The notes: generated by a model from the letters alone, not told the origin. 64,000 nucleotides of DNA from a virus (IMGVR_UViG_3300032332_001787:1-64000); one strand, 5' to 3'. Counted from the first letter of the stretch, positions 40,512 to 58,614 are shown. Numbers and translations are program-made.

Positions 40512-41595
40512 ATTACTCGCCGTAAACCCTTTGTGCCTAAGCACTTAGGGTTGGCGGGGCGGGCCGGATTTGTCGTAAGTCTTTATCCTGCAACACTTTG
40601 CGAGAACCTTACGAAATTGTAAGAAAACTTTCTAGTTGACAACTAAAGTTTCATGTGCTAAAATGTCGATATAAGAGATAGAGAAAGAGAGAGTGAAGAA
40701 TGAGTTGGAATGGGTATCAGATGAGTAGGGATATGTGGGGTAACATGAAGCATGAGCATATCCATGTTGGTTGGACTGTGACGTTTGATATGGATGGTAA
40801 GCGTTACTCGTGGAATCTTAATGCAAAGTATAGAACTAAGATTGACGTTGAACGTAGGGTTTTTGAGAAGTATCCTACTGCTACTAATGTTCGTTGCAAC
40901 AAGAATATTTGTGAAGTTTGAAGGGAATAAAATGAGACAGTTAACCAAAAACGAAATAGCCGATCTAGAATTTGACGCTGAACTTATGGGCTTTCGGGTA
41001 GTGTATCTTCCCAAACCTCTTGACTGGAATCATTTTGTGTTGTATTATCTCAAGCCAGAATTGACTTATGTTGGTCACTATCGTGGTTTGAATGAGGTCA
41101 AGCTAGGTATGCAGAAGCACTACAAGCCGGAGTATAGTGAAAAATGAACGATCTACATTATGAATTTTTGTTGAAAGCGATGTATCAAAAACCTAAAAAG
41201 AAAAAGGTTCAACACGGGTCTGCTGGTCGTAACTACTACGGTGAGTTGAAAAGATTTAAAGGCTATCGTGGCCCATTAAAGAAAGATGAAGAGCAGAAAT
41301 GACTAATGAAGAAAAATGGATTGAATATCGTAAGTCTGTAGGCTTGACTGAAAAGTCTCCAGAAATTGAAGCTGGTTGGAATAAGGAATATAATTGTTCT
41401 AACCGAGTTGGTCGATTAATTTACATGAACGATTCTGATACTTACGGAGACTGAAATGAAAACGAAAAAGAAGGTATTGACAGCACACGAAAAAGCTGTT
41501 ATACTCATGAATCGTGAAGCTGGTCGTGCAGTGAATCGTGTGAAGATGTTGGAACGGTTGTATCTTGAAACTATGAAAGCAAAGGAACTTGTTAA

Positions 41596-41826
41596 ATGAA
41601 GTGCGTTGTTACCCATACCGATACTTATGGTGGTGAAGCTAACTATGGTTGGGTGAATCGTTATGAATTCATCCCCAAGAAGAATGCTAGCCAGCGTAGC
41701 GTTATTCGTAAGGCTAAGGCTCTGGCCGGTATGACAGCAGTCAAGGCTGAGACCTATGACTATGGCGACGGCTATACCGTTAAGCCTCGCGGCTATGCTC
41801 AGATCATCTTTGTTGATTTTGAGTAA
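41596..41826 (+). CDS. Conserved phage hypothetical protein
   Basis: TDTYGGEANYGWVNR motif. Confidence 0.5.
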   Translation: MKCVVTHTDTYGGEANYGWVNRYEFIPKKNASQRSVIRKAKALAGMTAVKAETYDYGDGYTVKPRGYAQIIFVDFE

Positions 41827-42016
41827 ACTCTCCCTCGTCGTAAACCCTTTGTGTTCAAGCACTTAGGGCCGACGGGGCGGGCCGGGCTTGCTGTAAGTCC
41901 TTATCTACCAACACTTTACGAGAATCCTTACAATCTATTAAGATTCAAGTTACCCCCTTGCAATAGACGATAATAGATAGTAGAATACGATATAGAAGAA
42001 AGGCAAGGGTGAAGAC

Positions 42017-42280
42017 ATGAGTCCTGACGGAAGCTATAACGGTTATGTAAACTACCAGACATGGAATGTTTGCTTGTGGATTAGTAATGATGAAAATCTG
42101 TATAGTCTGGCAAAACAGTGTGGTTCTTACGAACATTTCAGGATTTTGATTCGTGAGATTTTTACCACAGCCCCTATCCGATTCGAAACGCCCGATTGTG
42201 TGGCTTGGAATGATAGTGGTATCAACATGGCCGAAATGGTAGAGTATTGGGAAGAAAATTTTTCTAAAGTTTGTGCTTGA
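42017..42280 (+). CDS. Conserved phage hypothetical protein
   Basis: YNGYVNYQTWNVCLWISNDE motif; follows the promoter after repeat A8. Confidence 0.55.
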   Translation: MSPDGSYNGYVNYQTWNVCLWISNDENLYSLAKQCGSYEHFRILIREIFTTAPIRFETPDCVAWNDSGINMAEMVEYWEENFSKVCA

Positions 42281-43677
42281 CAAATGACGATATATAGTGT
42301 AGACTTGGCGTATGGATGTTGTGATCGATTTTCAATTTGAAAGGGTTTCTATGAACGATGTGATTTTGTTTGGTTCGATTCTGTCGGCTGTTGCCGCTGC
42401 TGTTGTGGGCTTTGTCTTCTATTCCGTTTACGGTGGAAGTAAGGCCAGTTTGGCGAATGCTCAAGAGGGTCAGGTTTTCAACTTTGTCTACGAACAGCCA
42501 TTGCATGGAACGCATGAGCGTTTTCTTGCCAAGGTGATCGGAAAGCAGACGCTGACTGCTGACCAGATTAAGAGACTGAATCGTAAGAGTCGGTATCGTA
42601 TCAATGATCCTGAGTTTGTGCGTACTACCAATCTGGTAACGTGTCGAACTGCGGATGGTAAGGTGCGTAATTTCTATGCAGAACGAGTAACCAAGTGCCG
42701 AAAGCCGTTGCTGGCCGGTGCTTTGTTCAAGAGCGGGTTTGCTAACCTGTTCTAAAAACTAGCAGTCTCTGCCTACTAACTGACCAACCCCTAACCCTTT
42801 GACACCAAAGGACTTAGGGCGAGGTCGGCCGGCCCGCTTCGTCGTAAGTCTTTACGTATCAACGCTTTACGACAATCTTTTTTGTTCAAGTTTTTCCTCT
42901 TGACAGGCCGATAATAGTAGTGTAGAATACAAGGAATCAAAAGGAGAAAAACAGATGTTTATGTTCAATAAGCCGTATGCTTTGACCGATGCTGTGACTC
43001 GTGAGGTTAGTGACGAGGATATGGTAACTTTTAGTGGCCTTAGTGTTGGAGGTCGTGAGTTTAGGATAGTCACGCGACTTGACGATGCCCAGCGTTGGAT
43101 TAATGGAGAGTTGATTCAAGTTGCTTTTCCGTATCTGTCTGCTGATGATCGTGAGATTCTCAAGACGGGAATCGATGCTCAGGATTGGGAAACCATGTTT
43201 GCAGGAACAAGAGAGGAGGATGAGTGATGAATACTGATACTTATATGGTGATGAAAGGCAATAAAGTTGTAGGTTATGTTCAAGCGTACAGTACCTATCA
43301 TGCCTTGTGTCAGGCGGAAAAGTTGTATGGGAAGAATTTGCTACTTGAGCGAATTTCCAATAGTTGTCCTGCCTAATCCTTCGGATTTGGGCTGGATGGG
43401 TATAGTCAGCCAGTAGTCGGGGCTTGACAAAGAGTCTTTAATAGAGTATACTTGGAGTAAGGAGAAAATTATGCTGACAAGTGAAGAAAAGGGTTTGATT
43501 GCTGGTCGTGTGGCTAGTTTTGCTATGAAGATGGTTATACAGGCTAATGATTATAATCCTGAGGTTATGACCGCAGAACTGGATAAGTTTCAGGCTTTTA
43601 TCTGTAGCGCTCTTGAGGCTGCTATTCGTGATGGTAGGCGTGAAGCACTCGTTACAACTCTTAACTAAGGAAGTATC

Positions 43678-43857
43678 ATGAGAATTTGTCCGTGTGGGTC
43701 TGGCAAGAAAAGTTGGTGGGAAAGTGATGCTAGGGGAATTCCACTGGGTAGGGTTTGTTTGGATTGTTTGGATAAAAAGTTGAGTAAGTATAGGCCAGAA
43801 GTGTTGACCAACTCCAACTACTATGCTGACGAGCCTATTGAGGCCGAGGACTACTGA
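43678..43857 (+). CDS. Small Cys-motif protein
   Basis: Manual translation MRICPCGSG...DARGIPLGRVCLDC; TGA ends 2 nt before repeat A10. Confidence 0.6.
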   Translation: MRICPCGSGKKSWWESDARGIPLGRVCLDCLDKKLSKYRPEVLTNSNYYADEPIEAEDY

Positions 43858-44016
43858 TCGTAAGTCCTTATCCTTAAAGAACTTAGGGTAAGGCGGGCCG
43901 GCCGACTTTGACGTAAGTGCTTGTGTATCATAGGGTTACATCAACTCTAAAAAATTTTTGGAATTCCTATAGAAGCCTCTTGACAAGTGACGATAATAGA
44001 TGTATACTTAGCACAT

Positions 44017-44716
44017 AAGCAGATGAGGGCCGCTGGCAGAATGATATCAAAGTAGCCACGGTTAAATGGCTGTCGAGTATGGCTCAACCCTATCTGCTTT
44101 ACAATACAAAACTCGTGGGTCCATGCCTTGGACTAGGTTGGGTAACTCATTACGATAAGCATCGCATGTCGCGGCAGCGATGATGCTGACAGTGCCGGTT
44201 ACGCACTGGATAGTAGTGCTAATCTATGGGGGATCGCGTCCTCACCACGTTATAATACAATCCGGTATTATCCCTCATCGGGTAATAGAGTGAATTAACA
44301 CTGCAACAATGCGCTTGCATTTTATCCTTCATCGGGTAGAATCACTGAAACAACAGCCGGATACCGAACAATCAGTAACCGTTCCCAAGAGCCAGACCAG
44401 AGCGATCTGTTGCTAGCAGACAATCGCTTTGCAGGGAGGATTTCCGTGGACGGTTTCCACCAGTTTTTACCTTGCTCCAAGGGTTCATAATATCGGAGTA
44501 TTGGTGGGTTATAGAATCGGGGCGTAAACGATTCGCTGGTTACAAACAGGGGTCGGATAGAAACCACCAAATGACGGTCTGTGGTTGGTTAATGCGTGAT
44601 ACCGGACATTATCTGTAAAACTATCGTGGTGATAAAACAAGCACGCTCTAGCAGCGTATGGGTGCGATTCCCATATCATCATAAGTCGATCCATTAACAG
44701 CCGGTATACAATACAA
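44017..44716 (+). ncRNA. Putative large structured ncRNA or ncRNA array
   Basis: Follows the TTGACA/TATACT promoter at 43980-44008; no convincing plus-strand ORF; more than 12 hairpins; TAYAATACAA at 44100, 44251 and 44707. Confidence 0.75.
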
Positions 44717-46320
44717 AGGAGAAGAGATGACTAAAGAAGAATCAGACAGAAACGCAGCAATAGTTTATGTTCTTAGGGTTCTAAAAAGCCCAATGATGAT
44801 CAGGAGTCCTGCTAAAAAAGACGCATTGACTTTAGCAGAGAGGTATGGTATAACGGTGACTGATTTGATTAATGAGTATGATGAGATAACAAAGAGAATA
44901 TAATGAACTGGCATTATGGTGATCCGATTTTGAATGGTCAATATCTGTGTTGTGTTAAGGATTATTCTTTCCCCTTTCCGTTGTTCTGGAGTGTGGAGAA
45001 TGGTGGTTGGGGAGATTGGTGGCATGGTTCTCTTGGAGATGAGCTTGAGTCGTGGAATCAGTTTGACAATTCGTTAGTGGTGTGCTATACTAGCTTTCAA
45101 GAAATTCCTATGCCGGAGGGTTGGTAATGATCTACTTAAATATTAATGAGATTGAACGATTGGCCGAAATTGTGGCCGAACTGGTTAAACTGAACATGTG
45201 TGTGGTTGCTGAGTTGAAGGGAACTAAGTGGAGTATTGAGGTAACTAAATAATGGAATGGATTAGTTTTTTTGAACGACAGCCAGAAGATGGTCAGGGTA
45301 TTTGGTATTATGGTGAGCATATTGGTGTGTGGGCTGGAGAGTATTCTTATTCTCCAAATGACCCTTTTAGTCCTCATCTTATATTTTGTCATGAATCTCC
45401 CGGTCTGGTTGACCGAATGGACGCTCCGTGGTGGATGGTTGATGATGGGGTAATGAACAGGCCAATCAAACCAGCAAAAGATTATCCAGCCGATTATCCT
45501 AGTTGACATAAGTCCTTGCTGCTAAAGCACTTAGCTCAAGGGCGGGCGGGCGGTTTCGTCGTAAGTCCTTGCTACTAAAGACTTTATGATTAGCAATATT
45601 TTTTCAAGATTTTCTCTTGACTTGTCGATAATAGTAGTGTAAGATACTAGCAACACGAAAGGGAAAATGATGACTGTATATGAGCTTATCAAAAAGTTAG
45701 AAGATTATCCATTGGACATGAGGGTTTTGACCCTTGGGTATGAGGGTGGGTTCAATGATGTCTCGTTGCAGACCGACGAGATTGTTTTCAATGTGAATGA
45801 TAAGGACAGGTGGTACTATGGTCCTCATGAGTCTGTGAGACATATGGATGGGGATAAGGGTGAGAAGTGCTTGATTATTGGGAGAGGAAAATGAAAACGG
45901 TAGAAAAACACGCCGAAGTACGATTTCATTTGCTCAACGGTAAAAATTTCCGAAAATGGCAAGTAAATATTATGCAAGGTAAGAAAAGGGTTGATCAATT
46001 TTATGTAGACCCGGCCGAGTACCAGTTGGAGATGAGGGGTTGCAAGCTGGTAAATAAGGTAGCTAGGGCGAAATGGGTCAATAAGAAACAGAAAAAGAAT
46101 GTTAGTGGTTGGGTGCAGTGTGAAGAGGTTATGCTTCGCAAAGATTTTTATCCCTCTTTGCCTATTGACAATCTTGAGAAGTTGTATTATAATCCCATTC
46201 GTGATGTTCACTGGCGACGAGAGAGTGATGGTGGTGAGTTTGTTTGGGATAACAGTGAGTATGACACCTTAGTTACCGATGGGCGACAGGTTCATATTCT
46301 AGAAGAACGTAACGGAAATT

Positions 46321-46746
46321 TTGACGGTATTTACGAGATCGACCCTAAGTATACAGAAAGTTTTGGAATTTATGATCAAAATCGAACTGAGCGTCCGTGA
46401 GTCGTTGAACATGATTGCCAACGGTTGCAGTCTTGATATGTTCGACAAGATTGTGTGTGCATTGGAAGTGGCACTGGGTGTGAACCAGCGTCGTATGGTG
46501 ACGATTACCGGAGGTCTGACTCTGGACAATCGTATCCATTCCATCAAGGCTATTCGACTCCACACCGGATGGGGTCTCAAAGAGGCCAAGGATTGGAGTG
46601 ATTATCTGGTTGGTGGCTGGCATTACGACAAGTTCGTTCCTGCCAAGTCCGGGGCCAAACAGAGCATCACTCTGAAAACGCCCGAAGCGGCAGAGGCACT
46701 GCTGCGTGATTTGGTTGGGCTGGGTTGTGAGGGTTATCTCTCATGA
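46321..46746 (+). CDS. Protein with ribosomal bL12 (L7/L12) C-terminal-like domain
   Basis: RIHSIKAIRLHTGWGLKEAKD resembles the L7/L12 motif KI.VIK.VR..TGLGLKEAKD; real start is probably downstream (MIKIEL). Confidence 0.7.
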   Translation: MTVFTRSTLSIQKVLEFMIKIELSVRESLNMIANGCSLDMFDKIVCALEVALGVNQRRMVTITGGLTLDNRIHSIKAIRLHTGWGLKEAKDWSDYLVGGWHYDKFVPAKSGAKQSITLKTPEAAEALLRDLVGLGCEGYLS

Positions 46747-47358
46747 CCTAAAGCCTTGTCCCTAAAGAACTTAGGGCGAGGCGGGCCGGCCGAATTTGAC
46801 GTAAGTCCTTATCAGCAAACAACTTAGGACAAAATAAAAAATCTTTGAGGCTCACTCAAGTTCCCCCTTGACAATGACGATACTATACTGTAGAATGAGA
46901 GTATCACGAGACAAGACTCCGCAATGATGCCAACAACAGAAACCATCACGACGGACTTGACAAGTGGGTATCAGTAACGTATACTGGTACTAGAACGATT
47001 GGTAACTGTAACATTTTTGGAGAAATGACATGAAGAAGTTTAGTTTTGTGGTTGATGTTGTGGCTGATGAGCTTGATCGTGATTCGGTTGTGGATTCGAT
47101 TCGTGACTGTCTGAGCGGTAGCCTTCCTGGCGATGTTCATGCGAATGTCAAGGCCGGTGAGGTCAAGGCTTTCAGCGAGCAGGGTTATAAGGTGTGGCGA
47201 GCGAGGGTTACGGGTGTGACAGCCGAGCAGGCTGGCGATGCCCATGATGGTAAGGTAGAAAAGGAAACTGCCGAAGCGGTTGCATGATCGACCGCAGGGA
47301 GTTATAATGGCTGCGAGCCTCCACGGGACGCCGTGGGGGCTTGCGGTATTGACGAGAC

Positions 47359-47432
47359 GACTCCGTAGCTCAATTGGATAGAGCGAGCGGCTTCTATCCG
47401 CTAGGTTGGGGGTTCGAGTCCCTCCGGGGTTA
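47359..47432 (+). tRNA. trnR: tRNA-Arg(TCT)
   Basis: Cloverleaf: GACTCCG/CGGGGTT, anticodon loop CTTCTAT, T-loop TTCGAGT. Confidence 0.92.
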
Positions 47433-47437
47433 TTGTT

Positions 47438-47512
47438 GGGGGTGTAGCTTAATCAGGTTAGAGCGTCGGCTTGTCAAGCCGAAGGTTGCGGGTTCAAGTC
47501 CCGCCACTCTCG
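47438..47512 (+). tRNA. trnD: tRNA-Asp(GTC)
   Basis: GGGGGTG/CACTCTC, anticodon loop TTGTCAA, T-loop TTCAAGT. Confidence 0.92.
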
Positions 47513-47528
47513 TTTATTATCTGAGTCG

Positions 47529-48116
47529 CTATTGATAGAAATGTTCTTCTCTGTGACAATTACTGCATAAGATAATACATTTATCTATTTCAGTCTTAAT
47601 ATCTTCTAGAGAAGCATTTTTATCTCTGAGCATAGCACCTATTCCATCTGTCTTATTGTTTTCTGTATGATGGAAATCTAAACATTCTGGTGACGACAAT
47701 CCGCATTTATGACATGAAGATTTTTGCTTTAGTTCTAATACATACCTAGCTTTTTTAGTAAGATATTTATATGTATTAGTATGTTCTTTTCTATGGCAGT
47801 TAGAGCAAATAACGTCGCATTTATTTATTTCTGCTAAAACTATTTCGGTTGAATATCCATGACGAATAAGATTGCATACTGTATCTTTTTTTGTATCTGG
47901 ATTTCTATGGTGAAAATCTAGACAATAGAATCTAGTCTCTCCACAGATTTTGCATGGGTTATTTTCTTTGAGGTTTTGAACTAGAGTTCTGTTATGATCT
48001 TTAGTTTTGTTCTTATATCTCTGTTTATATACTCTAACTCTGTCAATATTTTTATTAGCCCATTTAGTATTATTGGTTATTTTAGCTTTGCTTGTTTTAT
48101 TCTTTTTCATGGGCAT
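47529..48116 (-). CDS. Endonuclease with two tandem HNH domains
   Basis: CKICG..LDFHH..CDVICSNCHRKEH and CHKCG..LDFHH..CIILCSNCHREEH. Confidence 0.8.
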   Translation of the reverse strand: MPMKKNKTSKAKITNNTKWANKNIDRVRVYKQRYKNKTKDHNRTLVQNLKENNPCKICGETRFYCLDFHHRNPDTKKDTVCNLIRHGYSTEIVLAEINKCDVICSNCHRKEHTNTYKYLTKKARYVLELKQKSSCHKCGLSSPECLDFHHTENNKTDGIGAMLRDKNASLEDIKTEIDKCIILCSNCHREEHFYQ

Positions 48117-48303
48117 CTCCTGTATAAATTAATACACCAAATCTTAGCAATACGAGGGGATTTGTCGTAAGCCTATACCATCAAAGAACTTAGGAGAAAT
48201 GCGGCGAGCCGGGTTTGACGTAAGTCGTTCTCGCATAAGGACTTAGAGCAAAATATTTTTCACTAAAGAATATCTCTTGACTTAGCCGATTATTAGGTTA
48301 TAC

Positions 48304-49032
48304 TTGATAGACACGAAAGGGAAAAGTATGAAATACGCTATTGGTAATGACAAGTTGGGTAAGAATTGCTTGGTCGTGAGTCGTCCGGTTGGCGATACTT
48401 GCCCGCCCGATTGCGACTATCTTGGGAATGGATGCTATGCCGAAGCTACTGAAAATCAGTATAAAAATGCTCGCACTGCTGGATTCTCCAATATCATTAC
48501 GGAAAAGAATAAAATCCGTGCGATGATTCTGGAAGCAAAGCGTACCCAAAAAAGTATTCGCTGGCAAGAACGTGGCGATTGGTTTCTTAATGGACAACTT
48601 GACCTAGAATATGTTGCAAACGTAACATGGGCTTGTGAGAGTATTCTGGCCGATGGCGATACTTTGCCCGATATGTGGTTTTATACTCATATCTACGATT
48701 CTCGGCTTGTGAGTCTGGAAAAGTATATGAATGTGTACGCTAGTGTGCATGACGATAATGATATGGGTGAAGCACTATCGCAAGGTTTCAAGCTGTTCGC
48801 ATGGTGTGATAGCGATATGAAAATTGCACCCAAGCGACCCAAGAGCAAAGCAAAAGCCGAAGCATGGCGAAAAGCACTGCCGAAGCTGGTGGTTCTCAAT
48901 GCTACAAAGTTTGTGGTATGTCCAGAAATCCGTCGTGGTCGGTCAGAAATCACTTGCACCGGCACTAAAGATAGTATATCATGTGACTTGTGTGTTCGTG
49001 GTTTGGCTAATGTCTTGTTTCCAGCCCATTGA
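48304..49032 (+). CDS. Gp88-like Cys-rich phage protein
   Basis: TCPPDC..CYA, IRWQERGDW, WFYTH and C..C.LC motifs, as I recall for the GP88 family. Confidence 0.55.
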   Translation: MIDTKGKSMKYAIGNDKLGKNCLVVSRPVGDTCPPDCDYLGNGCYAEATENQYKNARTAGFSNIITEKNKIRAMILEAKRTQKSIRWQERGDWFLNGQLDLEYVANVTWACESILADGDTLPDMWFYTHIYDSRLVSLEKYMNVYASVHDDNDMGEALSQGFKLFAWCDSDMKIAPKRPKSKAKAEAWRKALPKLVVLNATKFVVCPEIRRGRSEITCTGTKDSISCDLCVRGLANVLFPAH

Positions 49033-49613
49033 AAGGAATAAAAATGAGCTACGTTGGATTGTATGATGATGCAGGAAGTAAAAATGCTTTCTATATTATC
49101 AAAGACAAAAAGATTGACCGTAAACGTGTGGGCTTCAAAGAGTTTGAGAGTGAGAAAGAGGCTAAGTTTGCCCATCGGGTTCAAAAGCATCTGGCACAGT
49201 TTGATTTGGCCCCTATGGTATATGGGGATGTTGGTTTTATTCGTAGGAATGATGGACAATTTACCTACTATGGTTATTTGACCGAAGTTGCTCGACCTAT
49301 GCCAACGTGCCATGATGATGATTGTGATGGCGAATGTTTTCAGAGTGAATGTAGTAATGGCACTACTATCAGTGAAGTAGTTTATGATTTGGGTGAACAT
49401 GGACTAGAATATAACGATGTCCACAAGGGTAATTTTGGTTATGTTCGACGCAAAGGATCATGGGTTCCGGTTGCTATCGACCTTGGGGTTGAGAGTTTTA
49501 CTGATTGGGATGAAGATATTTATGGGAAGTTTGATTATGATGCCGATGAAGATGTTGACAGCTATGGTGCGTGTAATTGTGCTCACTGCAAACAATTTAG
49601 AGACAGGGGATAA
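49029..49613 (+). CDS. Protein kinase-like (APH/ePK fold) protein
   Basis: VGFKEF (VAIK-like), DVHKGN (catalytic loop) and IDLG (DFG-like). Confidence 0.6.
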   Translation: MKGIKMSYVGLYDDAGSKNAFYIIKDKKIDRKRVGFKEFESEKEAKFAHRVQKHLAQFDLAPMVYGDVGFIRRNDGQFTYYGYLTEVARPMPTCHDDDCDGECFQSECSNGTTISEVVYDLGEHGLEYNDVHKGNFGYVRRKGSWVPVAIDLGVESFTDWDEDIYGKFDYDADEDVDSYGACNCAHCKQFRDRG

Positions 49614-50599
49614 TCATGGCAAAGTATTATATCAAATGTGGAACACTAGAACTAATTTACTCTTGCAATAAATGTCCAAGGGATGCTGCAATGGATGCTA
49701 TATGGGAAACGAATGAAAATGATACACTAGATGAACACTTCTATATAGATGAGCGTGGGTATAGAGACTATGTTACTGCTGATGGACATACTTGTGTATT
49801 AAATACTGGTCATATTCTCATAGACGCAGGATGGAGTATTGAATAATGTGGACAAAAATAGACGATAAAAAAGTAAGACACTTATGGGAATGTGCTGATT
49901 GTGATAATCTAGTTTATGTAGAGCCTTGGTTTTATTCAGAAAACGGCGAACCTTTTTGTACAACGTGCGAGAAGGATATGGAGTATATTCGAACAGAAGT
50001 AGATATGTAGCCTTTTCCGCAAACCCTTACTGCATAAGCACTTAGGGCGAGCGGGGGCGGCCGAATTTGACGTAAGTCCTTAGCCCGCAACACTTTAGAG
50101 CAAATTCAAAAATCTTCTAAAGTTTCCCTACTGGATTAGTCGATAATATTGGTATGGAAACGAAGCAAGAAACCAAAAGGAATGGACAGATGATCCAGTG
50201 GGTAGGGATTCTGATTACTCTGGTGGGTTTGGCCTATACGGGAATCAAAGATTATCAAAAAGGTGATATAAAATTCCCTCCCATGCCTCAGAAACCGGCC
50301 TTGACAAAGGTAGTTTATCCGGTACAATACTGTCTGATGGCTTACGATCCTAATGTTGACAAAGTTTTTTATCTACACGAAAACGGACAATGGCATGATT
50401 ACGCTCCACAACAACGACGATATGAGACCACGCCGCAACCATATCAAACTCAAGGTGCGACCGCAGTGGCAGGTTCCTACGGGTCACAAGGAACACCGAC
50501 ATACCGTTATGGACAATCGCCCCAAGCGTCAACGAACCCGATCCGCTGAAAACCGCAGGGCTTGCGAGAACGGAGACTATTGACTATAATAGTAGGATT

Positions 50600-50672
50600 G
50601 CCGATGTAACTCAGTTGGTAGAGTAGCAGTTTTGTAAACTGCCTGTCATCAGTTCGATTCTGATCATCGGCT
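50600..50672 (+). tRNA. trnT: tRNA-Thr(TGT)
   Basis: GCCGATG/CATCGGC, anticodon loop TTTGTAA. Confidence 0.92.
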
Positions 50673-50673
50673 C

Positions 50674-50939
50674 TCGGGAATGGTGTAACGGTAGCACAAG
50701 TGACTTTAATAAACTGGAGTGCGTCAAGAGAAATTTTGATGTAGAACCTCTCAAATTCGGGGAACGCTTAACTGCCAATCCCGAGCCAAGCCGGAAACGG
50801 AAGGTGTAACGACTTGACGGGAGGCACCTAAAACTTTTAGTCATGGTGATGGTAAAGTCTAGACTACAAACCGTAAGGGTAGCGAAAGCTATAGTAGTAA
50901 GTGGATCACTTTGTCTAGGTTCAAATCCTAGTTCCCGAA
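50674..50939 (+). tRNA. trnQ: tRNA-Gln(TTG) interrupted by a group I intron
   Basis: Exons 50674-50706 and 50902-50939 join to give TCGGGAA/TTCCCGA, anticodon loop CTT^TGGA and T-arm CTAGG-TTCAAAT-CCTAG. Confidence 0.88.
50707..50901 (+). mobile_element. Group I self-splicing intron, 195 nt, IC3-like, no internal ORF
   Basis: P/Q/R/S-like elements CTCAAATTCGGGGAA, AATCCCGAGCCAA, GGTGTAACGACTTGACGG and GGTAAAGTCT; 5' exon ends in U and the intron ends in G. Confidence 0.88.
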
Positions 50940-51631
50940 TTTAGTTTTTGCCAATAGCCTCTGCGATTAGTTAATTGGATTCCATATGCTTTAGCCCATT
51001 TACGAACAGAGTTATCTGTTACGTTATATTTTTTAGCTATAATACTCATAGGTATAGTAGCAATTAATTTTTCTAATTCCTCTTTAGATGGTCTTTCTAC
51101 TTTTCTGAGCCATGGTTTAGAAGTTTGTTTGATTTTAATCGGTTTTATCTTTTTGAATCTTTTACCAGCATAGGTATCTGTTTGGCTATGACAATTAGGA
51201 CACAAAAAACATAAATTAGATAATCTATTATCATTAGGAATTCCATTTTTGTGTTCTAGTTGCAAAGATATTTTTTTATTATTCCAGACATCTTTTAATC
51301 CGCATGACTCACACTGATATGGTATTAATTTATTTTGTATAATTCTTTTTTTTATACCACCCCTATTTGTTGTTCCGTTCTCGCAAAAAAATTGATCATC
51401 AGTTTTCTTTGGTGAAAATCTTTTACCTTTATTAGAGCCTCTACCAAGCGAAATGTGAGACATATCTATATTCTCATCTTTAGCTCGTCTTTTTACAGTA
51501 TGGTGGTTTCCTCCTTTATTATTTAAACCAAAATGACGTAGTATATCTGCTATTGTGTTTGATCTACAAACTAGAGTTTGGAATTCTTCTGTAGAAATTG
51601 ACCATATAATACTTCTTTTTTTTCTATTCAT
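50921..51631 (-). CDS. Free-standing HNH homing endonuclease
   Basis: CESCG...LQLEHKNGIPNDNRLSNLCFLCPNCHSQT; N- and C-terminal HTH-like segments; stop overlaps the tRNA-Gln 3' end. Confidence 0.85.
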   Translation of the reverse strand: MNRKKRSIIWSISTEEFQTLVCRSNTIADILRHFGLNNKGGNHHTVKRRAKDENIDMSHISLGRGSNKGKRFSPKKTDDQFFCENGTTNRGGIKKRIIQNKLIPYQCESCGLKDVWNNKKISLQLEHKNGIPNDNRLSNLCFLCPNCHSQTDTYAGKRFKKIKPIKIKQTSKPWLRKVERPSKEELEKLIATIPMSIIAKKYNVTDNSVRKWAKAYGIQLTNRRGYWQKLNSGTRI

Positions 51632-51720
51632 GTTTAACTCCTTATTGGTACCATATATTATACACCATTCTGGTGTCTTGACAAGTTGCTTTATTCTGTT
51701 ATAATAGCATAAATCGACGG

Positions 51721-51792
51721 TGTCCGATAGCTCAACGGTAGAGTAGGCGGCTGTTAACCGCTTGGTTCTAGGTTCGAATCCTAGTCGGACAG
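51721..51792 (+). tRNA. trnN: tRNA-Asn(GTT)
   Basis: TGTCCGA/TCGGACA, anticodon loop CTGTTAA. Confidence 0.92.
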
Positions 51793-51797
51793 CTTAG

Positions 51798-51887
51798 GGA
51801 AGAGTGGCAGAGTGGTCATAATGCACTGGTTTACTAAACCAGCGATCTCTTAACCGGGGTCCGTGGGTTCGAATCCCACCTCTTCCG
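51798..51887 (+). tRNA. trnS: tRNA-Ser(ACT) with long variable arm
   Basis: GGAAGAG/CTCTTCC, discriminator G, stem CTGGT-TTACTAA-ACCAG. Confidence 0.85.
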
Positions 51888-51890
51888 TTT

Positions 51891-51973
51891 GGTAGATTAC
51901 TCAAGTGGACAACGAGGGCAGACTGTAAATCTGCTGGCTATCGCCTTCGGGAGTTCGAATCTCTCATCTACCA
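51891..51973 (+). tRNA. trnY: tRNA-Tyr(GTA)
   Basis: GGTAGAT/ATCTACC, anticodon loop CTGTAAA, long variable arm. Confidence 0.92.
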
Positions 51974-52136
51974 CTAAGTTGTTGATATGAAAGAACTTAG
52001 GACAAATCCGGCGGACCGGGTTCGACGTAAGTCCTTGCAACATAACGACTTAGGATTTTCTAAAGTTTGTTCTTGACAACTGCCGATAACTAGTGTATGA
52101 TTGCTAATCGGAGGCTGGCGACTGAGTTACGAGAGT

Positions 52137-52208
52137 GGCCCTATAGTCTAACGGCTAGGACGACAGCCTTTCACGCTGTAGATTGGAGTTCGATTCTCCA
52201 TAGGGTCA
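52137..52208 (+). tRNA. trnE: tRNA-Glu(TTC)
   Basis: GGCCCTA/TAGGGTC, anticodon loop CTTTCAC. Confidence 0.9.
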
Positions 52209-52512
52209 TTTGTTTCTGCTAATCCTACGGATTTGGTGGTCTTGGCGATAGTCAGCACGAATCCTAAAGTTTTGGCTCTTGACAGACCGATATTGGTATG
52301 GTAGACTATTGGAACAAGAAAGGAAAATGATGAAGAACCTTCGCATCTATGATATTCTGACTGAGGATGGTAAAACTCTGGCCGAAATTACTCTGTCTAT
52401 GCAAGAGGATTTTGATTGGGCTGATGTTTTCGACAAGCTGTATGATATGACTACAGAAAATGTAGAGAGTTATTCTTATGAGGAAATTGCCGTAAACGCC
52501 GAATAAGCTGAT

Positions 52513-52586
52513 GCGCCTCTAACTCAATTGGTCAGAGTAGCGGTCTTTTAAACCGTAAGTTCCGGGTTCGAGTCCCGGGGGGCGCA
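52513..52586 (+). tRNA. trnK: tRNA-Lys(TTT)
   Basis: GCGCCTC/GGGGCGC, anticodon loop CTTTTAA. Confidence 0.9.
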
Positions 52587-52639
52587 CTTGACAGTGACGA
52601 TTGTTGGTGTAGAATAGAGGTAAGAAAGGGAGTAAAAAT

Positions 52640-52813
52640 ATGAGATATGAAGATCATTATGACGGATACGATTATGACTATGATGAATTGGTAGAAAATA
52701 CCGAGGATCTTGGTCTGGACGAAGAACCTTGGATGCAAGATGCAGAAGAGGATGATGAAGTTCCGTCCTATGGTAAGAATTATTATCCTAGTATTGAAGA
52801 TGAAGATGACTGA
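52640..52813 (+). CDS. Highly acidic small protein
   Basis: Manual translation MRYEDHYDGYDYDYDELVENTEDLGLDEEPW...EDEDD. Confidence 0.55.
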   Translation: MRYEDHYDGYDYDYDELVENTEDLGLDEEPWMQDAEEDDEVPSYGKNYYPSIEDEDD

Positions 52814-52818
52814 TCTTT

Positions 52819-52901
52819 GTGTGTGCTTCTAGGTGGGACTAGACCCTAATATATTTATCCTTTCTTGTAACGGGATGTTGGTTCAAATCCAACCACACAC
52901 T
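52819..52901 (+). ncRNA. tRNA-like RNA with aberrant anticodon region
   Basis: Perfect acceptor GTGTGTG/CACACAC, T-arm GTTGG-TTCAAAT-CCAAC and D-like stem TCTAG/CTAGA; no canonical anticodon arm. Confidence 0.6.
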
Positions 52902-52903
52902 TT

Positions 52904-53407
52904 ATGAACGCTTTCCAGCAAGAGCTTGATGACTTTCGGCGTACCCCAGATGGTAAAATCATTCAAGGGGCTGCTCATACTAGCAGAGTATTAAATCACA
53001 AATATCGAAATGATGTGATTATCAAGGCTGTTTGTTCTCTGCGTAAGATTGAGAATGATTTTGACAGTATTGCTTGTTGTGGTGTGAGTGGTTTGATGGT
53101 AGTACCACAGATTGCGGAGATTCTCAATAAGAATATTATAGTTATTCGTAAGGATGAGCGGCGATATAGTGAATTCTTTATCGAAGGTGTTACTCCATCT
53201 AATTATGTTATTGTAGATGATTTAATTTGTTCTGGTAATACGGTTAAACGTATAACAAATAATATTCGTGCTGATGTTCCACGAGCAAAATGTATCGGTG
53301 CATATTTCTACATGGGTGAGGAGTGTGCCTATAATGCTTCCAATTCTAAACTTTTTGAGAAGCAGTTTGGGACGATCATCCTAAACCCTTACCGGCCAAA
53401 GACTTAG
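52904..53407 (+). CDS. Type I phosphoribosyltransferase-like protein
   Basis: PRPP-binding loop YVIVDDLICSGNT; IACCGVSG; VIRKD. Confidence 0.8.
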   Translation: MNAFQQELDDFRRTPDGKIIQGAAHTSRVLNHKYRNDVIIKAVCSLRKIENDFDSIACCGVSGLMVVPQIAEILNKNIIVIRKDERRYSEFFIEGVTPSNYVIVDDLICSGNTVKRITNNIRADVPRAKCIGAYFYMGEECAYNASNSKLFEKQFGTIILNPYRPKT

Positions 53408-53534
53408 GACAAGGTGGGGCGGCCCCGGTCGCCGTAAGTCCTTATCTGTCAACCACTTACGACCTGCGTAATTTTTCCAAAGTTTTCGCTTGACAGTGAC
53501 GATAACATAGTGTAGAATCAGTGAAGTAGAACGA

Positions 53535-54515
53535 TTGAACAGAAACACGAAAGGGATGATTATGGCTCATGCAGTTGAACAGATGATGTTTGTTGGTGCG
53601 ACCCCGTGGCACGGTCTGGGTAACCAGTTGGACGAGGCTCCCACAATTTCGGAGGCGATTACGGCCGCTGGTCTGGATTGGGAAGTGGGTCTGAAAGACC
53701 TGTTCACTCAAGAGGGCAGACCAGTTCCCGCCCGTGCTACCTATCGTAAGACCGACGACCATTCCATTCTCGGAGTTGTCGGCCCGCGATACACCCCGCT
53801 GCAAAACAGCGAGGCGTTCGATTGGTTCCAGCCGTTTCTGGATGCTGGTGAGTGCAATCTGCACACTGCCGGTTCTCTCCACAGCGGTGCGAAGGTTTGG
53901 GTTCTTGCCCAACTGAACCGCGACAATAGTGAGATCGTCAAGGGTGATGATGTTTGCAAGTTTATCCTGCTGTCCAACAGCCATGATGGTACGACCGCGA
54001 TTCGTGTCGGATATACTCCGATCCGCGTTGTGTGTGCGAACACGATGGCTATGGCTCACAGCAAGGGTAGTGGTTCCAAGCTGATTCGGATTCGTCATAC
54101 CCGTTCCAGCAAGAACAATCTGGAACAGGTTCGGGATATCATGGACAATATCAACGCAGAGTTTGAGGCGACTGCGGAGCAGTTCCGATTCCTCGCGTCG
54201 AAGAACTTCAACCAGAATGATGTTCGTCGATATGTTAAGGTGATGCTCGGCATCGAAGGTACTGCGGATGCGGATATTAAGACTCGCACCCGTAATATCA
54301 TGGATGAGATTCTCACCTTGGTGGAAGGCCCGAAGCAGAGTGCGACGGGGGTTCGCGGAACTTGGTGGGCCGCGTACAACGGCTACAACGAGTACCTGAA
54401 TTACAACAAGGGTCGCACGACCGATAATCGGCTCGATTCTCTCTGGTTCGGTCAGAACGCAAACGACAACGTGAAAGCGTTGGAGAAAGCTATGGAGTTC
54501 GCTCAGGCACTCTAA
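53535..54515 (+). CDS. DUF932 family (phage/plasmid TIGR03299-like) protein
   Basis: MAHAVEQM..TPWHGLG, YTPLQN, TAGSL..GAKVWVLA, LLSNSHDGT, TPIRVVCANT, IRHT and GTWWAAYNGYNEY; likely start 53562. Confidence 0.9.
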   Translation: MNRNTKGMIMAHAVEQMMFVGATPWHGLGNQLDEAPTISEAITAAGLDWEVGLKDLFTQEGRPVPARATYRKTDDHSILGVVGPRYTPLQNSEAFDWFQPFLDAGECNLHTAGSLHSGAKVWVLAQLNRDNSEIVKGDDVCKFILLSNSHDGTTAIRVGYTPIRVVCANTMAMAHSKGSGSKLIRIRHTRSSKNNLEQVRDIMDNINAEFEATAEQFRFLASKNFNQNDVRRYVKVMLGIEGTADADIKTRTRNIMDEILTLVEGPKQSATGVRGTWWAAYNGYNEYLNYNKGRTTDNRLDSLWFGQNANDNVKALEKAMEFAQAL

Positions 54516-54540
54516 TCCCTCGCAATGAGGGTTGACACGG

Positions 54541-54576
54541 GAGCCGCCACTCAGCAATGGGTGGCGGTTCTTTTTT
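54541..54576 (+). terminator. Rho-independent terminator
   Basis: GAGCCGCCAC...GTGGCGGTTC followed by TTTTTT. Confidence 0.85.
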
Positions 54577-57517
54577 GTGCCTAGGGCATTTCGTATAAAC
54601 CCTTATCAGCAAAGGACTTAGGGCGAGCGGGGCCGCGAAATCTTGTCCTAAGTTCAATGACACCAAGCACTTGCGTCAATTTAGTAAAAGAATCTCGTAA
54701 GCCCCCTATTCCCAAAGGGTTGGAATGACGATATACTGTATGTGGACGTAAGGTGTGTAGTGGCAAGGGTTTAGGTTAAAATAGTAATAGAATTATAATA
54801 ATGAGTTGTATATTTTTCAAATCCGTATTTGTCTCGCCTAATCCTGCGGAATTGCTGACGTTGCTGATAGTCAGCCAGAATAGTGGCTATAATAACAAGC
54901 CTCTCTGTTCCTAAGTTCTTATGTTTTAACCACTTGCGTCAAGTGTTAGAGTGTGGTATACTAGAAGGAGTAACAACGATAGTAATAAGCTGATCAATAG
55001 TTGAGACTAATTCTCAATAGATAAAGATGGTTAGATTAGTAGTCTGATAATGTAGTCAGGCTAAATCACAGACCCCTTGAGAATGATGCAGGAAAGAAAT
55101 GAAAATTGTATTAGAAATAAATAGCTCTGAGGATTTTGACTACGAGTATTTTATTGACTGGCTCAATGACCAGTTGTTTGATAGTTCTATGTGTGGAACT
55201 GATGTTGATGCTGGTATTATTAGTGTGAATGGGGAGAATAAATACTAATGAAAGTTACTGATGAAAATAGACAAGAGATTATGAGTACCTATTGTAGCCG
55301 TCTCTTGGACGATATGGACTTTAATACTCTGTACAATTTTGCTTATGATATGTTGAGAGATAATAAAGAGGGATTGACCAATAAAATGTTGGAAGAACAG
55401 ATTACTGACTATTACCCTGACCTTTTGGAGACTGCATAATGCAAAAACTTTGGGATGAATCTGGTCAACCTCTTTTCTATAAAGAAAACGGAGAAAGAGA
55501 TTATCTTCAGGAAGCTCGTTATAGATACGTTTCTCCATCATGGATGAGCATGGCAGCATACTCTTGTTGTCCTGAGGAATTACAGGCCAGATTGAATAAC
55601 ATGGAGTGGGATGGAAAAACTCAATATATAATCAACAAGGAGAATAACTAATGGAAGTAGAACTTAGTAAACAAGAAGCTTGGAAGATTCTAGATGCTCT
55701 TGTTGCTTATAAGAAAGATTATACCTTAACGGGGCCAGTTAATAAGATTTTTGACAACATTACTAAAAAGCTCAAAGAGATTGTAAAGGATTAGTGGTGT
55801 AATAATTAGTAGGTTTGGGCCACCTTATTGTGGGGGCTTTATGTTGATATTGTGGAGAATATTACGAGCGATCTTTTGCGGATGTTTATTCGCCTGGATC
55901 GGAGTCTCTATGATGGAAACGGAACTAGAGATTCTTACTAATAGTTCTTATAAGGAATATATGGCTCTTGATCTGTTTTATGGATATTTGAGCATACGGA
56001 AGTTTTATGAGAATATTGTTTATGTTGCAGGAATAAACTTTATTCTAGGATTGTTAATAGGACTAATCTGGAAACCTGGTAGTATTAAAATCTAACAAGA
56101 GCGGTGAGTTGTTCTTGTAAGTTGTTTGGTTTCAAGGATTTGCGTCGAATGTGACGATATGGTATGATAGTGTTGTGGCGGTTGTGGTCAACATCCCTTT
56201 TCTTGTGAGGCACCATGTTCTATTTTGCTTTTATTATTTGTATTGGTCTTGGTGTTGCTAATGGCCTTCAAAATAGTTAAATGAATAGTATAAAAATCCT
56301 TGTTGAGTTTACTATGGCACAGACAAAGAATTCCATGAATGAAACTCTAGACAAGGCTCTATTAGATTCTTAGTATCTATTACTTATATCTTATGTGCTA
56401 TCAGAAGACTTGTAAATATTATCAATCAACCCCTGCATAATACATACTCTTTTCTCAAAACCCTGTCAAGGTAAAAAATTTCTTATGTCAACTTATTATT
56501 TATCGAGCAATGTAGATAGTCAGCCAAAGTGGTGGGTCAGTTAAAAAAGAGATAAGAAGTATAATTTGGTTCCTCAACCCTTCAGGGTATAATACAGTAG
56601 TCAACGGAGCCAATAGTCAAGCGTCATGGTGAGATGATGCGGGGCTTACGGAATCATGGGCAAAAGAGTTGTTTTTAAACTTTTACCATGAGGTGATTTA
56701 TGAAAAGTCGATTTATAGGTTCGGATAATAGGGTTGAGATTCAAAGAAAGTATATTGATCAGATCTTGGGTGAATTAGATTTCATGCAGATCAAAGATCG
56801 TTTAAGAGATTATCTGAGCAAGGAAAAAGATAAAGAATCTAATTATGCTTTGGAAGCTGAGATACGAAAAGAAGCTCCAGAAGTATTAGTAGATAATTGG
56901 GAAAGTTTTGATGGGCCAACTACCTTAATAGAGGAAGAAGGATATCATCATGCTTAAAACTTTCCATAGAATAATTTCTTTTGAAGTAGAGGGTGAGATA
57001 TATGATAACTCTACCTCTCCTGAAGATATTTTAAAAAGCTATGATTGGAGATTCAAAGGATTCCATGACAACCATGAGGATAAATGTTTTTTAGAATCAT
57101 CTCATGATAATAGTCGTGGACGTATTACTAAAATTATTCGAAAGAATAAAATTGGTAAAACGGACAGAGCAGATACAGAAACTTTTACAATCAAGAACTG
57201 AGGTGCTTTATGAATTATACATTAGTTTATTGGAGCGTTGGAGCTTTAGTAACATTGTTAGCATTAGTATCACTATACTATTACTCATGCCATTGTTCTC
57301 CTCCAGCTATTAAATAGTAAGTAAATAATAAATACCAATTACTAAGTCCGGTGGAATTAGTCCCAGCTAATCCGCCGGATTTGGTTTTATTGGTAGTAGT
57401 CAGCCAGATTGGGTGGTCAGTAAGAATCAGCAACTTGTCTAAAGCACGGATTAGCCTATTATAGTCTAAACGACAGTCGCACGGACGCGACATATTTTTC
57501 ACCAGGAGACTATTTTT

Positions 57518-57733
57518 ATGATGAAGTTTGTTCTTGTGTTCGCTCTTATGGTTCTTGGTTCGTCAACTTATGCTGGCGAATGTTCTAATGGACATTGTAC
57601 TCTACGCAGTCGCGTTGTCAATGTTACCCAAGAAATTGTTGCTGTTCCAGTAGCAGTTACCCGTCGAACAGTTGAGGCTACTCGTAATGTTGGTCGAAGA
57701 ACTGTGGCCCGCGTTCGTAGTGTGGTTCGTTAA
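57518..57733 (+). CDS. Secreted small protein, planctomycete style
   Basis: Signal peptide followed by GECSNGHC and an Arg/Val-rich tail. Confidence 0.6.
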   Translation: MMKFVLVFALMVLGSSTYAGECSNGHCTLRSRVVNVTQEIVAVPVAVTRRTVEATRNVGRRTVARVRSVVR

Positions 57734-57852
57734 TATTTATGGTTGATAATCTAAAGGGTTAGGATAACTTGTTGGATTATAGATCAATAGAGAATTCCCC
57801 CGAAAAAACTCGGGGGTCTTTTCTTAAATTTACTTTATTCATGGAGGAACTT

Positions 57853-58197
57853 ATGAAAAATTTTATGATTGCAATTGCTCTAGTTTTTGTCACTACTTTT
57901 ACCGCAGAGGCGGCTCGACCAAGATATTATAGTCAGCCAACTGTAAAGGTAGAAAGTTATGCAAGAACATACGTTGGTAACAATGATCAGGAGCGTTGTC
58001 AAGCAGAAGCAGATCATATGGCAGCTAATAACATTACTGGTCATGTTTGGGGTGTTATTGGTAATTTTGAAGGAGTTGGTTATGGTTCTAGTCCTAATTG
58101 TAACACTTGTACTCCAAGCAACAATATGACTCTAACAGGAGATGCGTCAGCACAAGGTCGAAATGGAATGTGGTATCGCGTAAGATCGTGGAGGTAA
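57853..58197 (+). CDS. Secreted small protein, possibly CAP/SCP-like
   Basis: MKNFMIAIALVFVTTFTAEA signal; HMAANNITGH..EGVGYG..GDASAQGRNGMWYRVRSWR. Confidence 0.55.
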   Translation: MKNFMIAIALVFVTTFTAEAARPRYYSQPTVKVESYARTYVGNNDQERCQAEADHMAANNITGHVWGVIGNFEGVGYGSSPNCNTCTPSNNMTLTGDASAQGRNGMWYRVRSWR

Positions 58198-58207
58198 TCT
58201 CTACTAG

Positions 58208-58280
58208 GCAAGAGTAGCTCAATTGGCAGAGCGTTAGGTTTCCAACCTGAATGTTGAGGGTTCAAGTCCCTTCTCTTGCT
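58208..58280 (+). tRNA. trnG: tRNA-Gly(TCC)
   Basis: GCAAGAG/CTCTTGC, anticodon loop TTTCCAA. Confidence 0.92.
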
Positions 58281-58614
58281 TTTATAAAATGTCTTAGCTA
58301 ATAAACTAGGGACGATTTTAATGATACAGTCAGCGAGATTGTTATATGATATGTACTATTAAGATAACCCCAAACATGTCATGCGAATACATATGTCAAA
58401 GAGTGCAGGAGTTAGTAAACTATCATAACAAACATAATCAAGATCTAACAGATTCAATGATTACTATTGAGATTAAGAGACCTCAGTATGATGTTGATAT
58501 GATTCCTAAGCTAGAATTTAAAAATTGACATTTTCCCATAAGCCCCTATTATAATTTGATTAGTCCCACCTAATCCTGTGTATTCGAAATTATAGAAACA
58601 GTCAGCGTAATATT

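Follow-up and report, generated by a model that had tools for sequence, protein, structure and literature searches.

This locus raises the question of what a phage makes from some 700 nt of DNA (44017–44716) that lie behind a strong promoter and hold no convincing gene. The window analysed here covers the initial 64 kb of an IMG/VR virus record of 230 kb from an uncultured freshwater jumbo phage, and the DNA runs in which the stretch is found are lake and freshwater metagenomes. An earlier interpretation made without database searches (the sequence-only reading) held that the stretch was either a new large non-coding RNA or a processed array of three RNAs. The stretch is modular and does not code for protein; its conservation involves compensatory changes on the plus strand, and it is present in RNA libraries. 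Its best explanation, to which we give a probability of roughly 0.7, is a stable-RNA operon that is transcribed from a sigma-70-type promoter and then processed in the manner of a tRNA cluster, comparable to rnaC and rnaD of phage T4.

No nucleotide matches to GenBank phages were obtained in near or distant search mode, and the terminase is only ≈24% identical to those of cultured phages. Related loci were taken from IMG/VR, where 50 could be recruited via the neighbouring 177-aa ORF (58–98% protein identity) and about 100 more with three conserved motifs, giving about 150 in all. The features identified in the stretch are collected in Table 1.

Table 1. Features of the RNA array and its borders (positions counted from the first base of the window).
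Feature	Position	Strand	Basis or remark
Promoter, sigma-70-type, TTGACA–17-nt spacer–TATACT	43980–44008	+	Consensus match 11/12
M1, 83-nt promoter-proximal RNA	44017–44099	+	nhmmer/covariation in relatives
M1 outer stem	44017–44029 with 44088–44099	+	
M1 inner hairpin, CCG.UGGC with GCCACGG	44030–44037 with 44055–44061	+	
M1 loop palindrome UGAUAUCA, 8 nt	44042–44049	+	
Spacer 1, UACAAUACAAAACU	44100–44113	+	
M2, 136-nt four-way-junction RNA with tRNA helix order and pseudoknot	44114–44249	+	Covariation
M2 closing stem, 5 bp	44114–18 with 44245–49	+	
M2 5′ hairpin	44119–33	+	
M2 long arm, base	44134–41 with 44219–26	+	Branches into hairpins 44158–87 and 44190–208
M2 pseudoknot	44142–46 with 44198–202	+	
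M2 3′ hairpin	44229–43	+	
Spacer 2, UUAUAAUACAA	44250–44260	+	UAU at the CCA position of many relatives
M3a, optional unit, UCCGG (44261–65) with CCGGA (44356–60)	44261–44360	+	Consensus fold
M3b1, multi-branch RNA	44370–44540	+	118 nhmmer matches
M3b1 P1, AUCAG with CUGGU	44370–74 with 44536–40	+	
M3b1 P2, AACCGUU/GACGGUU	44376–82 with 44449–55	+	
M3b1 conserved hairpin, GAAUC with GAUUC, CGGGGCGUAAA-type 11-nt loop	44514–18 with 44530–34	+	
M3b2, conserved leader with variable hairpin inside	44541–44625	+	Always abuts the tRNA slot
AUACCGG, M3b2 arm of putative enclosing helix	44599–44605	+	
tRNA-like gene remnant, 57 nt	44626–44682	+	tRNA-Sec model 16.2 bits, sub-threshold
Conserved trailer, with CCGGUAU (44701–07)	44683–44707	+	
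Spacer 3, UACAAUACAA, then Shine-Dalgarno AAGGAG (44717–22), then ATG	44707–44729	+	

Promoter, coding potential and spacers

The promoter that the sequence-only reading had placed upstream of the stretch is present, and relatives keep its hexamers and their spacing upstream of M1 even where the sequence of the spacer differs. The surrounding region (40516–48229) also holds GC-cored double-palindrome repeats of 62–91 nt, which lie between gene cassettes in seven copies in 10 kb. Each has a near-consensus TTGACA promoter on its 3′ side, and one of them ends about 60 nt upstream of the array promoter.

The longest plus-strand ORF within 44017–44716 measures at most 48 aa, which bears out the earlier claim that no convincing plus-strand ORF is found before 44728. 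TAA, TAG and TGA are each present in all six frames, so that reassignment of any single stop codon opens no frame, and coding under alternative codes is ruled out. The first convincing ORF is found at 44727–44903 with AAGGAG placed 5 nt 5′ of its ATG, and no terminator could be identified between the array and the downstream ORFs. The GC content of the stretch is 47%, against 38% for the window.

The units described below are separated by A-rich spacers with the consensus (Y)AATACAA. A longer motif, TAYAATACAA, had been reported to follow each of three modules, and it does occur at 44100, 44251 and 44707, with seven copies in the window against 0.83 expected from shuffles; the form shared with relatives is the shorter AATACAA. 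The motif is unlikely to be a target-site duplication of inserted mobile units or to combine a −10 hexamer with a start site (compare TAGAATACAA in the promoter at 42926), as the internal copies have no −35 element upstream and relatives have the shorter form, often after CCA.

Division of the stretch into independent units

Comparison with the related IMG/VR loci by blastn and nhmmer breaks the stretch at the spacers into M1, M2, M3a, M3b1 and M3b2, the last followed by a tRNA slot and a trailer. Among relatives each unit follows its own course of gain, loss, duplication and relocation. The arrangements include M1-M2-M3b1, M2-M2-M3a-M3b1-M3b2-tRNA, M1 alone, and M1-tRNA-Lys-tRNA-Thr-tRNA-Gln onward. 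Tandem duplication of M2 is seen in L023 and L142, for example, and M3b1 nearly always lies 3′ of M2, either directly or after 40–220 nt of other material. Each unit of the stretch is closed on itself with covarying stems, and no conserved helix was found between units.

The feature maps of all loci, with their gain, loss and relocation of units, thus exclude a single obligate 700-nt fold and replace the three-module picture. The partition into three modules was wrong, since "Module 3" consists of three independent units and a tRNA remnant. Of the two alternatives offered by the sequence-only reading, the array under one strong promoter and without a known family is retained, with at least five units in place of three, and the single GOLLD- or ROOL-like RNA is given up. 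We consider it very probable that the stretch is an array of independent structured RNAs with at least five units. Different units occupy the same positions in relatives, so the pool of units in this phage group must be larger than the five seen here. Other unit candidates at spacer-delimited positions were observed at L017:8545–8640 and in the 40–220-nt gaps between M2 and M3b1 in L021, L079, L118 and others.

Contigs from four freshwater RNA libraries, belonging to four studies, were compared with the window over 43000–46000. All seven contigs fall on array units and none on the flanking ORFs, a distribution to be read with the proviso that assembly would favour units shared by many co-occurring phages, from an RNA or a DNA template alike. 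M2 has contig coverage from four RNA libraries. In one contig, with a depth of 39, sequencing adapters flank 44126–44247, within M2. Three contigs end at 44247–48, one or two bases short of the end of the M2 stem at 44249, bearing in mind that these Logan contigs are assembled and unstranded, that their ends are approximate and that DNA carry-over into RNA libraries is possible. Another contig spans M1 and M2 and extends into a second M2-like unit, as would be expected of a precursor, and one covers M3b2 and the trailer, has 71 nt at the slot where the window has 53, and ends with an adapter at 44704. With M2 alone as query, much of the unit was found in the RNA libraries of three studies and a small share of it in those of a fourth.

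Large RNAs encoded near tRNAs, such as GOLLD and ROOL, are known from phages. The array resembles them in being phage-borne, close to tRNA genes and present in lake metagenomes, and one multidomain RNA of about 700 nt, folded as a single unit like GOLLD, ROOL or OLE, would fit the single promoter and the lack of an internal terminator or ORF. The minimum-free-energy fold of the whole stretch also shows some long-range pairs. Its folding energy is, however, no better than that of shuffles (z = −0.97 on the plus strand and −1.66 on the minus strand), and no Rfam match supports such an RNA. Units are independently missing, duplicated, replaced and relocated in relatives, most of which have M1 about 2 kb from M2, and the RNA libraries give an adapter-flanked fragment inside M2 and short contigs that stop at unit borders. 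The closest relatives lack the 5′ arm of the only long-range helix proposed (44261–68 with 44599–606). The pair TCCGGTAT/ATACCGGA, drawn by the sequence-only reading to close its third module, is not conserved; its 5′ arm is part of M3a, a unit missing from most relatives, and the self-closure of M3a (UCCGG/CCGGA) removes this long-range pair. What we see here is a chain of autonomous small units, unlike the one fold of GOLLD or ROOL, and a single large RNA is very improbable.

Another reading makes the stretch a long, structured 5′ leader through which the ORFs from 44727 would be controlled in cis, in a riboswitch-like manner, by attenuation or at the level of translation. Such a leader would agree with the constant promoter-proximal position of M1 and with the way the array continues, without a terminator, into a Shine-Dalgarno sequence and an ATG. 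Yet in relatives the same units precede tRNAs, other RNA units, another promoter or unrelated ORFs, M2 and M3b1 often stand before a new promoter and not before a gene, and no conserved expression platform covers the ribosome-binding site. With downstream neighbours as variable as these, the stretch does not group with riboswitches or other cis-acting leaders, and we regard this reading as improbable.

Structures of the units

A match to M1 was found in about a hundred loci, and in relatives the unit always directly follows a promoter. Where M1 is distant from the rest of the array, it stands alone or 5–7 nt before a tRNA-Lys-Thr-Gln-Asn-Ser-Glu operon. Six pairs of the outer stem have changed on both sides. 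The inner hairpin is 99% paired and shows no covariation, and the inner helices have no covariation support because the 60-nt core is nearly invariant. A third helix, as first drawn, fails with 21.6% of cells paired. A perfect 8-nt palindrome is present in the 17-nt loop of all 48 distinct copies, in three variants (UGAUAUCA in 45, UGACGUCA in two and UAACGUUA in one), and the two less common forms are self-complementary only through paired changes. The palindrome fits loop–loop pairing of two RNA copies and a dimeric protein site on DNA equally well.

The helices of M2 follow the order of a tRNA, and the long arm splits into two branches, one of which has a loop that folds back to pair with the arm itself. 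An alignment of 23 sequences made with MAFFT supports eight helices, including the pseudoknot. In this alignment 96.4% of cells pair, compared with 34–40% when the 3′ partners are slid, changes on both sides are seen in 19 of the 46 pairs (two of them in the pseudoknot), and the values for four of the five measures are reached by none of the shuffles. When 45 distinct sequences were fitted to the covariance model, 29 of 40 pairs had changed on both sides. The model itself, built from the MAFFT alignment, has a single match in the phage and 53 at other loci. In one of the RNA-library contigs an M2 helix has likewise changed on both sides, from GCAUC to GCCCC and from GAUGC to GGGGC. G-U pairs are frequent on the plus strand of M2 (for example columns 39/109 and 137/150). 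Read from the opposite strand they would become C-A mismatches, a sign that the plus strand is the RNA.

These pairing-preserving changes, together with G-U pairs frequent on the plus strand only, are the signature of selection on an RNA. They bear on the reading that the stretch is debris of a decaying tRNA cluster or an element acting as DNA (protein-binding palindromes, recombination or replication sites), with any RNA structure incidental. One element is indeed a decayed tRNA, the many palindromic repeats and repeated promoters nearby could drive recombination, and the M1 loop palindrome would suit a dimeric DNA-binding protein about 30 bp downstream of the promoter. But the units are conserved across loci whose neighbouring protein is as little as 58% and at most 98% identical, the RNA-library contigs are confined to units, and we rate debris or a DNA element as the least probable of the explanations considered.

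Directly 3′ of the M2 closing stem, N-CCA is found in 32 of 65 distinct homologues (ACCA in 24, GCCA in seven and TCCA in one), compared with one in 64 expected by chance, and ATACAA comes next in 41 of the 65. The M2 of the window has U-UAU at this position and thus no encoded CCA. Some of the CCA signal could come from the spacer, whose general consensus CAAUACAA shares the "CA"; a C at the first position, however, is strongly preferred only after M2. From the tRNA helix order and the N-CCA in half of the homologues, M2 would most likely be matured, and possibly CCA-tailed, in the way of a tRNA. The loop of its 3′ hairpin has 5 nt (7 in a T loop), the closing stem has 5 bp (7 in tRNA) and the tRNA model gives no score, so that recognition by RNase P or by the CCA enzyme is not assured.

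M3a is an optional unit, present in 12 loci only and absent from the closest relatives. The consensus fold has twin hairpins with YUCAUC loops, and the fold of the single sequence gave z = −3.28. M3b1 is far more widespread and varies from about 106 to 185 nt in homologues (171 nt here), with two arms that are variable in both length and sequence. Its three conserved helices have 99.8% of cells paired, compared with 16–51% when slid, and five pairs have changed on both sides. No consensus fold was obtained for the central part (44383–44448). The inverted repeats listed in the sequence-only reading can all be found in the sequence, although two of them gave way here: relatives conserve AUCAG/CUGGU as the closing stem and not GTAACC/GGTTAC, and GTGGA/TCCAC, likewise not conserved, competes with AACCGUU/GACGGUU.

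The tRNA slot next to M3b2 holds, in relatives, a tRNA-like gene of 72–77 nt with normal D and T arms and an odd anticodon arm that ends in a GAGA tetraloop or in 6- or 8-nt loops. These genes were called as tRNA-???(gaga), tRNA-???(aa), Ile(tat) or Phe(aaa) and score 33.9–45.7 bits, compared with 51–76 for the other tRNAs of the phages. The remnant in the window keeps the acceptor stem, a small hairpin and a near-canonical T arm (AUGGG-UGCGAUU-CCCAU) and has neither a D arm nor an anticodon arm. The T-loop-like hairpin that had been noted in module 3 is what remains of a tRNA-like gene, intact copies of which occur in relatives. The short 57-nt version is found in the window and in one relative (L017). 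Both leader and trailer are conserved. The two invariant sequences AUACCGG (44599–605) and CCGGUAU (44701–07) are predicted from their complementarity to enclose the slot.

Known RNA families, processing and possible roles

At gathering scores, Rfam 15 finds only nine tRNAs in the whole window, all of them outside the stretch. Within 43800–44900 and with E-values up to 10, there is a single match, to tRNA-Sec at 44626–44682 (16.2 bits against a threshold of 47). GOLLD, ROOL, HEARO, tmRNA, RNase P, SRP, 6S RNA, Y RNA, group I and II introns and self-cleaving ribozymes gave no Rfam 15 match; the Rfam result agrees with the sequence-only reading, which had failed to place the stretch by eye in GOLLD, ROOL, tmRNA, RNase P or SRP. 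ARAGORN called no tRNA and no tmRNA in 44017–44716, and M1, M2 and M3b1 give no tRNA match. M1, M2 and M3b1 are three well-supported new RNA families, their newness being judged against Rfam. In 2023 a survey of IMG/VR (PMC10690425) predicted 8,495 structured-RNA candidates, and the array motifs could be among them.

A few other RNAs were seen in this phage group. One related phage has a Pistol self-cleaving ribozyme (L023:11406–11468; RF02679, 53.7 bits) at a distance of about 200 nt on the 5′ side of a tRNA-Arg, and no Pistol ribozyme reaches the gathering score in the window. A borderline abiF RNA is found at another related locus (L017:20204–20240; 38.3 bits, gathering score 37). The window also carries a tRNA-Ser with anticodon ACT (51798–51887), which is conserved across related phages; its A at position 34 is unusual for AGY serine codons.

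The closest counterpart in kind is found in T4, where rnaD (species 2, 119 nt) and rnaC (species 1, 139 nt) directly follow tRNA-Arg with gaps of 1 and 6 nt, and where the roles of both RNAs are described as unknown (PMC3014915). In both phages small RNAs of similar size lie head to tail, separated by few bases and adjoining phage tRNA genes within a single transcription unit. The rnaC fold resembles that of M2 in its terminal stem, its long inserted arm and its hairpin at the T-arm position; the T arm of rnaC is canonical with a UUCGAAU loop, while the corresponding loop of M2 has 5 nt and M2 also forms a pseudoknot. The array described here differs further in having at least five units and a promoter-proximal RNA of its own. 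No homology in sequence or structure was found: run with filters off on the T4 tRNA region, the M2 covariance model matched neither rnaC nor rnaD, and its best score was 6.5 bits at an unrelated place. The relation of the array to rnaC and rnaD is one of kind, not of family.

Likenesses to other systems are more partial. M2 shares with tmRNA a tRNA-like terminal domain, a long helix and a pseudoknot (compare the tRNA-like domain, helix 2 and PK1), but its acceptor stem reads C-G, G-C, U-A, G-C, G-C where tmRNA has G3:U70, and its 136 nt leave no room for a tag reading frame and contain none. YrlA is an RNA with a tRNA-like module closed by a stem and is present in some phages. Here, there is no Rfam Y RNA match and the 230-kb phage record encodes no TROVE domain, the search having covered the phage only, so that a Ro protein encoded by the host is possible. 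The slot between the RNA array and the mRNA recalls tRNA punctuation and the t-elements of plant mitochondria, as its acceptor stem and T arm are retained and its anticodon loop can vary freely, for example to a GAGA tetraloop; unlike these, the remnant in the window fails the tRNA model, and cleavage at the slot by RNase P or RNase Z would be putative.

The preferred reading, a stable-RNA operon, could work as follows. Host RNA polymerase would start at the promoter and transcribe M1, M2, M3a, M3b1, M3b2 and the decayed tRNA-like element in series, running on into the small ORFs from 44727. Each unit would fold alone around its terminal stem, leaving the A-rich (Y)AAUACAA spacers single-stranded, and the precursor would presumably be cut in or next to these spacers by the host enzymes that process tRNA clusters. 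Candidates are RNase P at the 5′ ends of the tRNA-shaped units, RNase E or cuts of the RNase Z type, and exonucleases that would trim the 3′ ends, so that discrete and stable small RNAs would be released. M1 would be a single-copy RNA beginning at the transcription start, and the tRNA slot at the 3′ end may mark the place where processing divides the RNA array from the mRNA that follows. The chances that processing is of the tRNA type stand, in our judgement, about even.

Neither a CCA-adding enzyme nor RtcB nor a TROVE/Ro protein was found in the phage (the TROVE search covering the 230-kb record), and enzymes of the host would accordingly have to be used. The nine true tRNA genes of the window (47359–58281) encode no 3′ CCA in any case, and as there is no CCA-adding enzyme of its own the phage must rely on that of the host. 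A search of cellular genomes with M1 gave three exact 19-mer matches, one of them on a 20.9-kb contig (L153, the same as G001:C44) in a lake MAG labelled Methylococcaceae. This contig has both M1 and M2, and M2 was found in none of 120 other genomes of the family; it is probably a phage contig binned into the MAG, and the label is at best a weak hint of the host.

As for what the mature RNAs do, our leading guess is mimicry of tRNA, directed at host factors that bind or cleave tRNAs, although any specific function in trans is doubtful. In a fuller but rather unlikely version the array would be an RNA toolkit, with M2 as a CCA-ended tRNA mimic that might be charged, or might act as a decoy or sponge for host tRNA-directed factors such as the anticodon nucleases of defence systems, RNase P, the CCA enzyme or ribosome-associated factors, and with M1 pairing with itself through the palindromic loop to form homodimers or higher assemblies.

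Small stable RNAs in phage tRNA operons have been known since species 1 and 2 of T4, and their function is unexplained. The locus enriches this problem with several unrelated families, more than 100 natural variants, strong compensatory changes and a defined pseudoknot, and also offers natural gain, loss and duplication of units and presence in environmental RNA libraries. Several features are ready for experiment: the CCA-ended, tRNA-shaped M2, the M1 loop that stays self-complementary despite mutation, and the slot gene that has no normal anticodon loop but has an acceptor stem, D arm and T arm. The alignments of M1, M2 and M3b1 are suited for submission to Rfam and would improve the annotation of freshwater jumbo phages.
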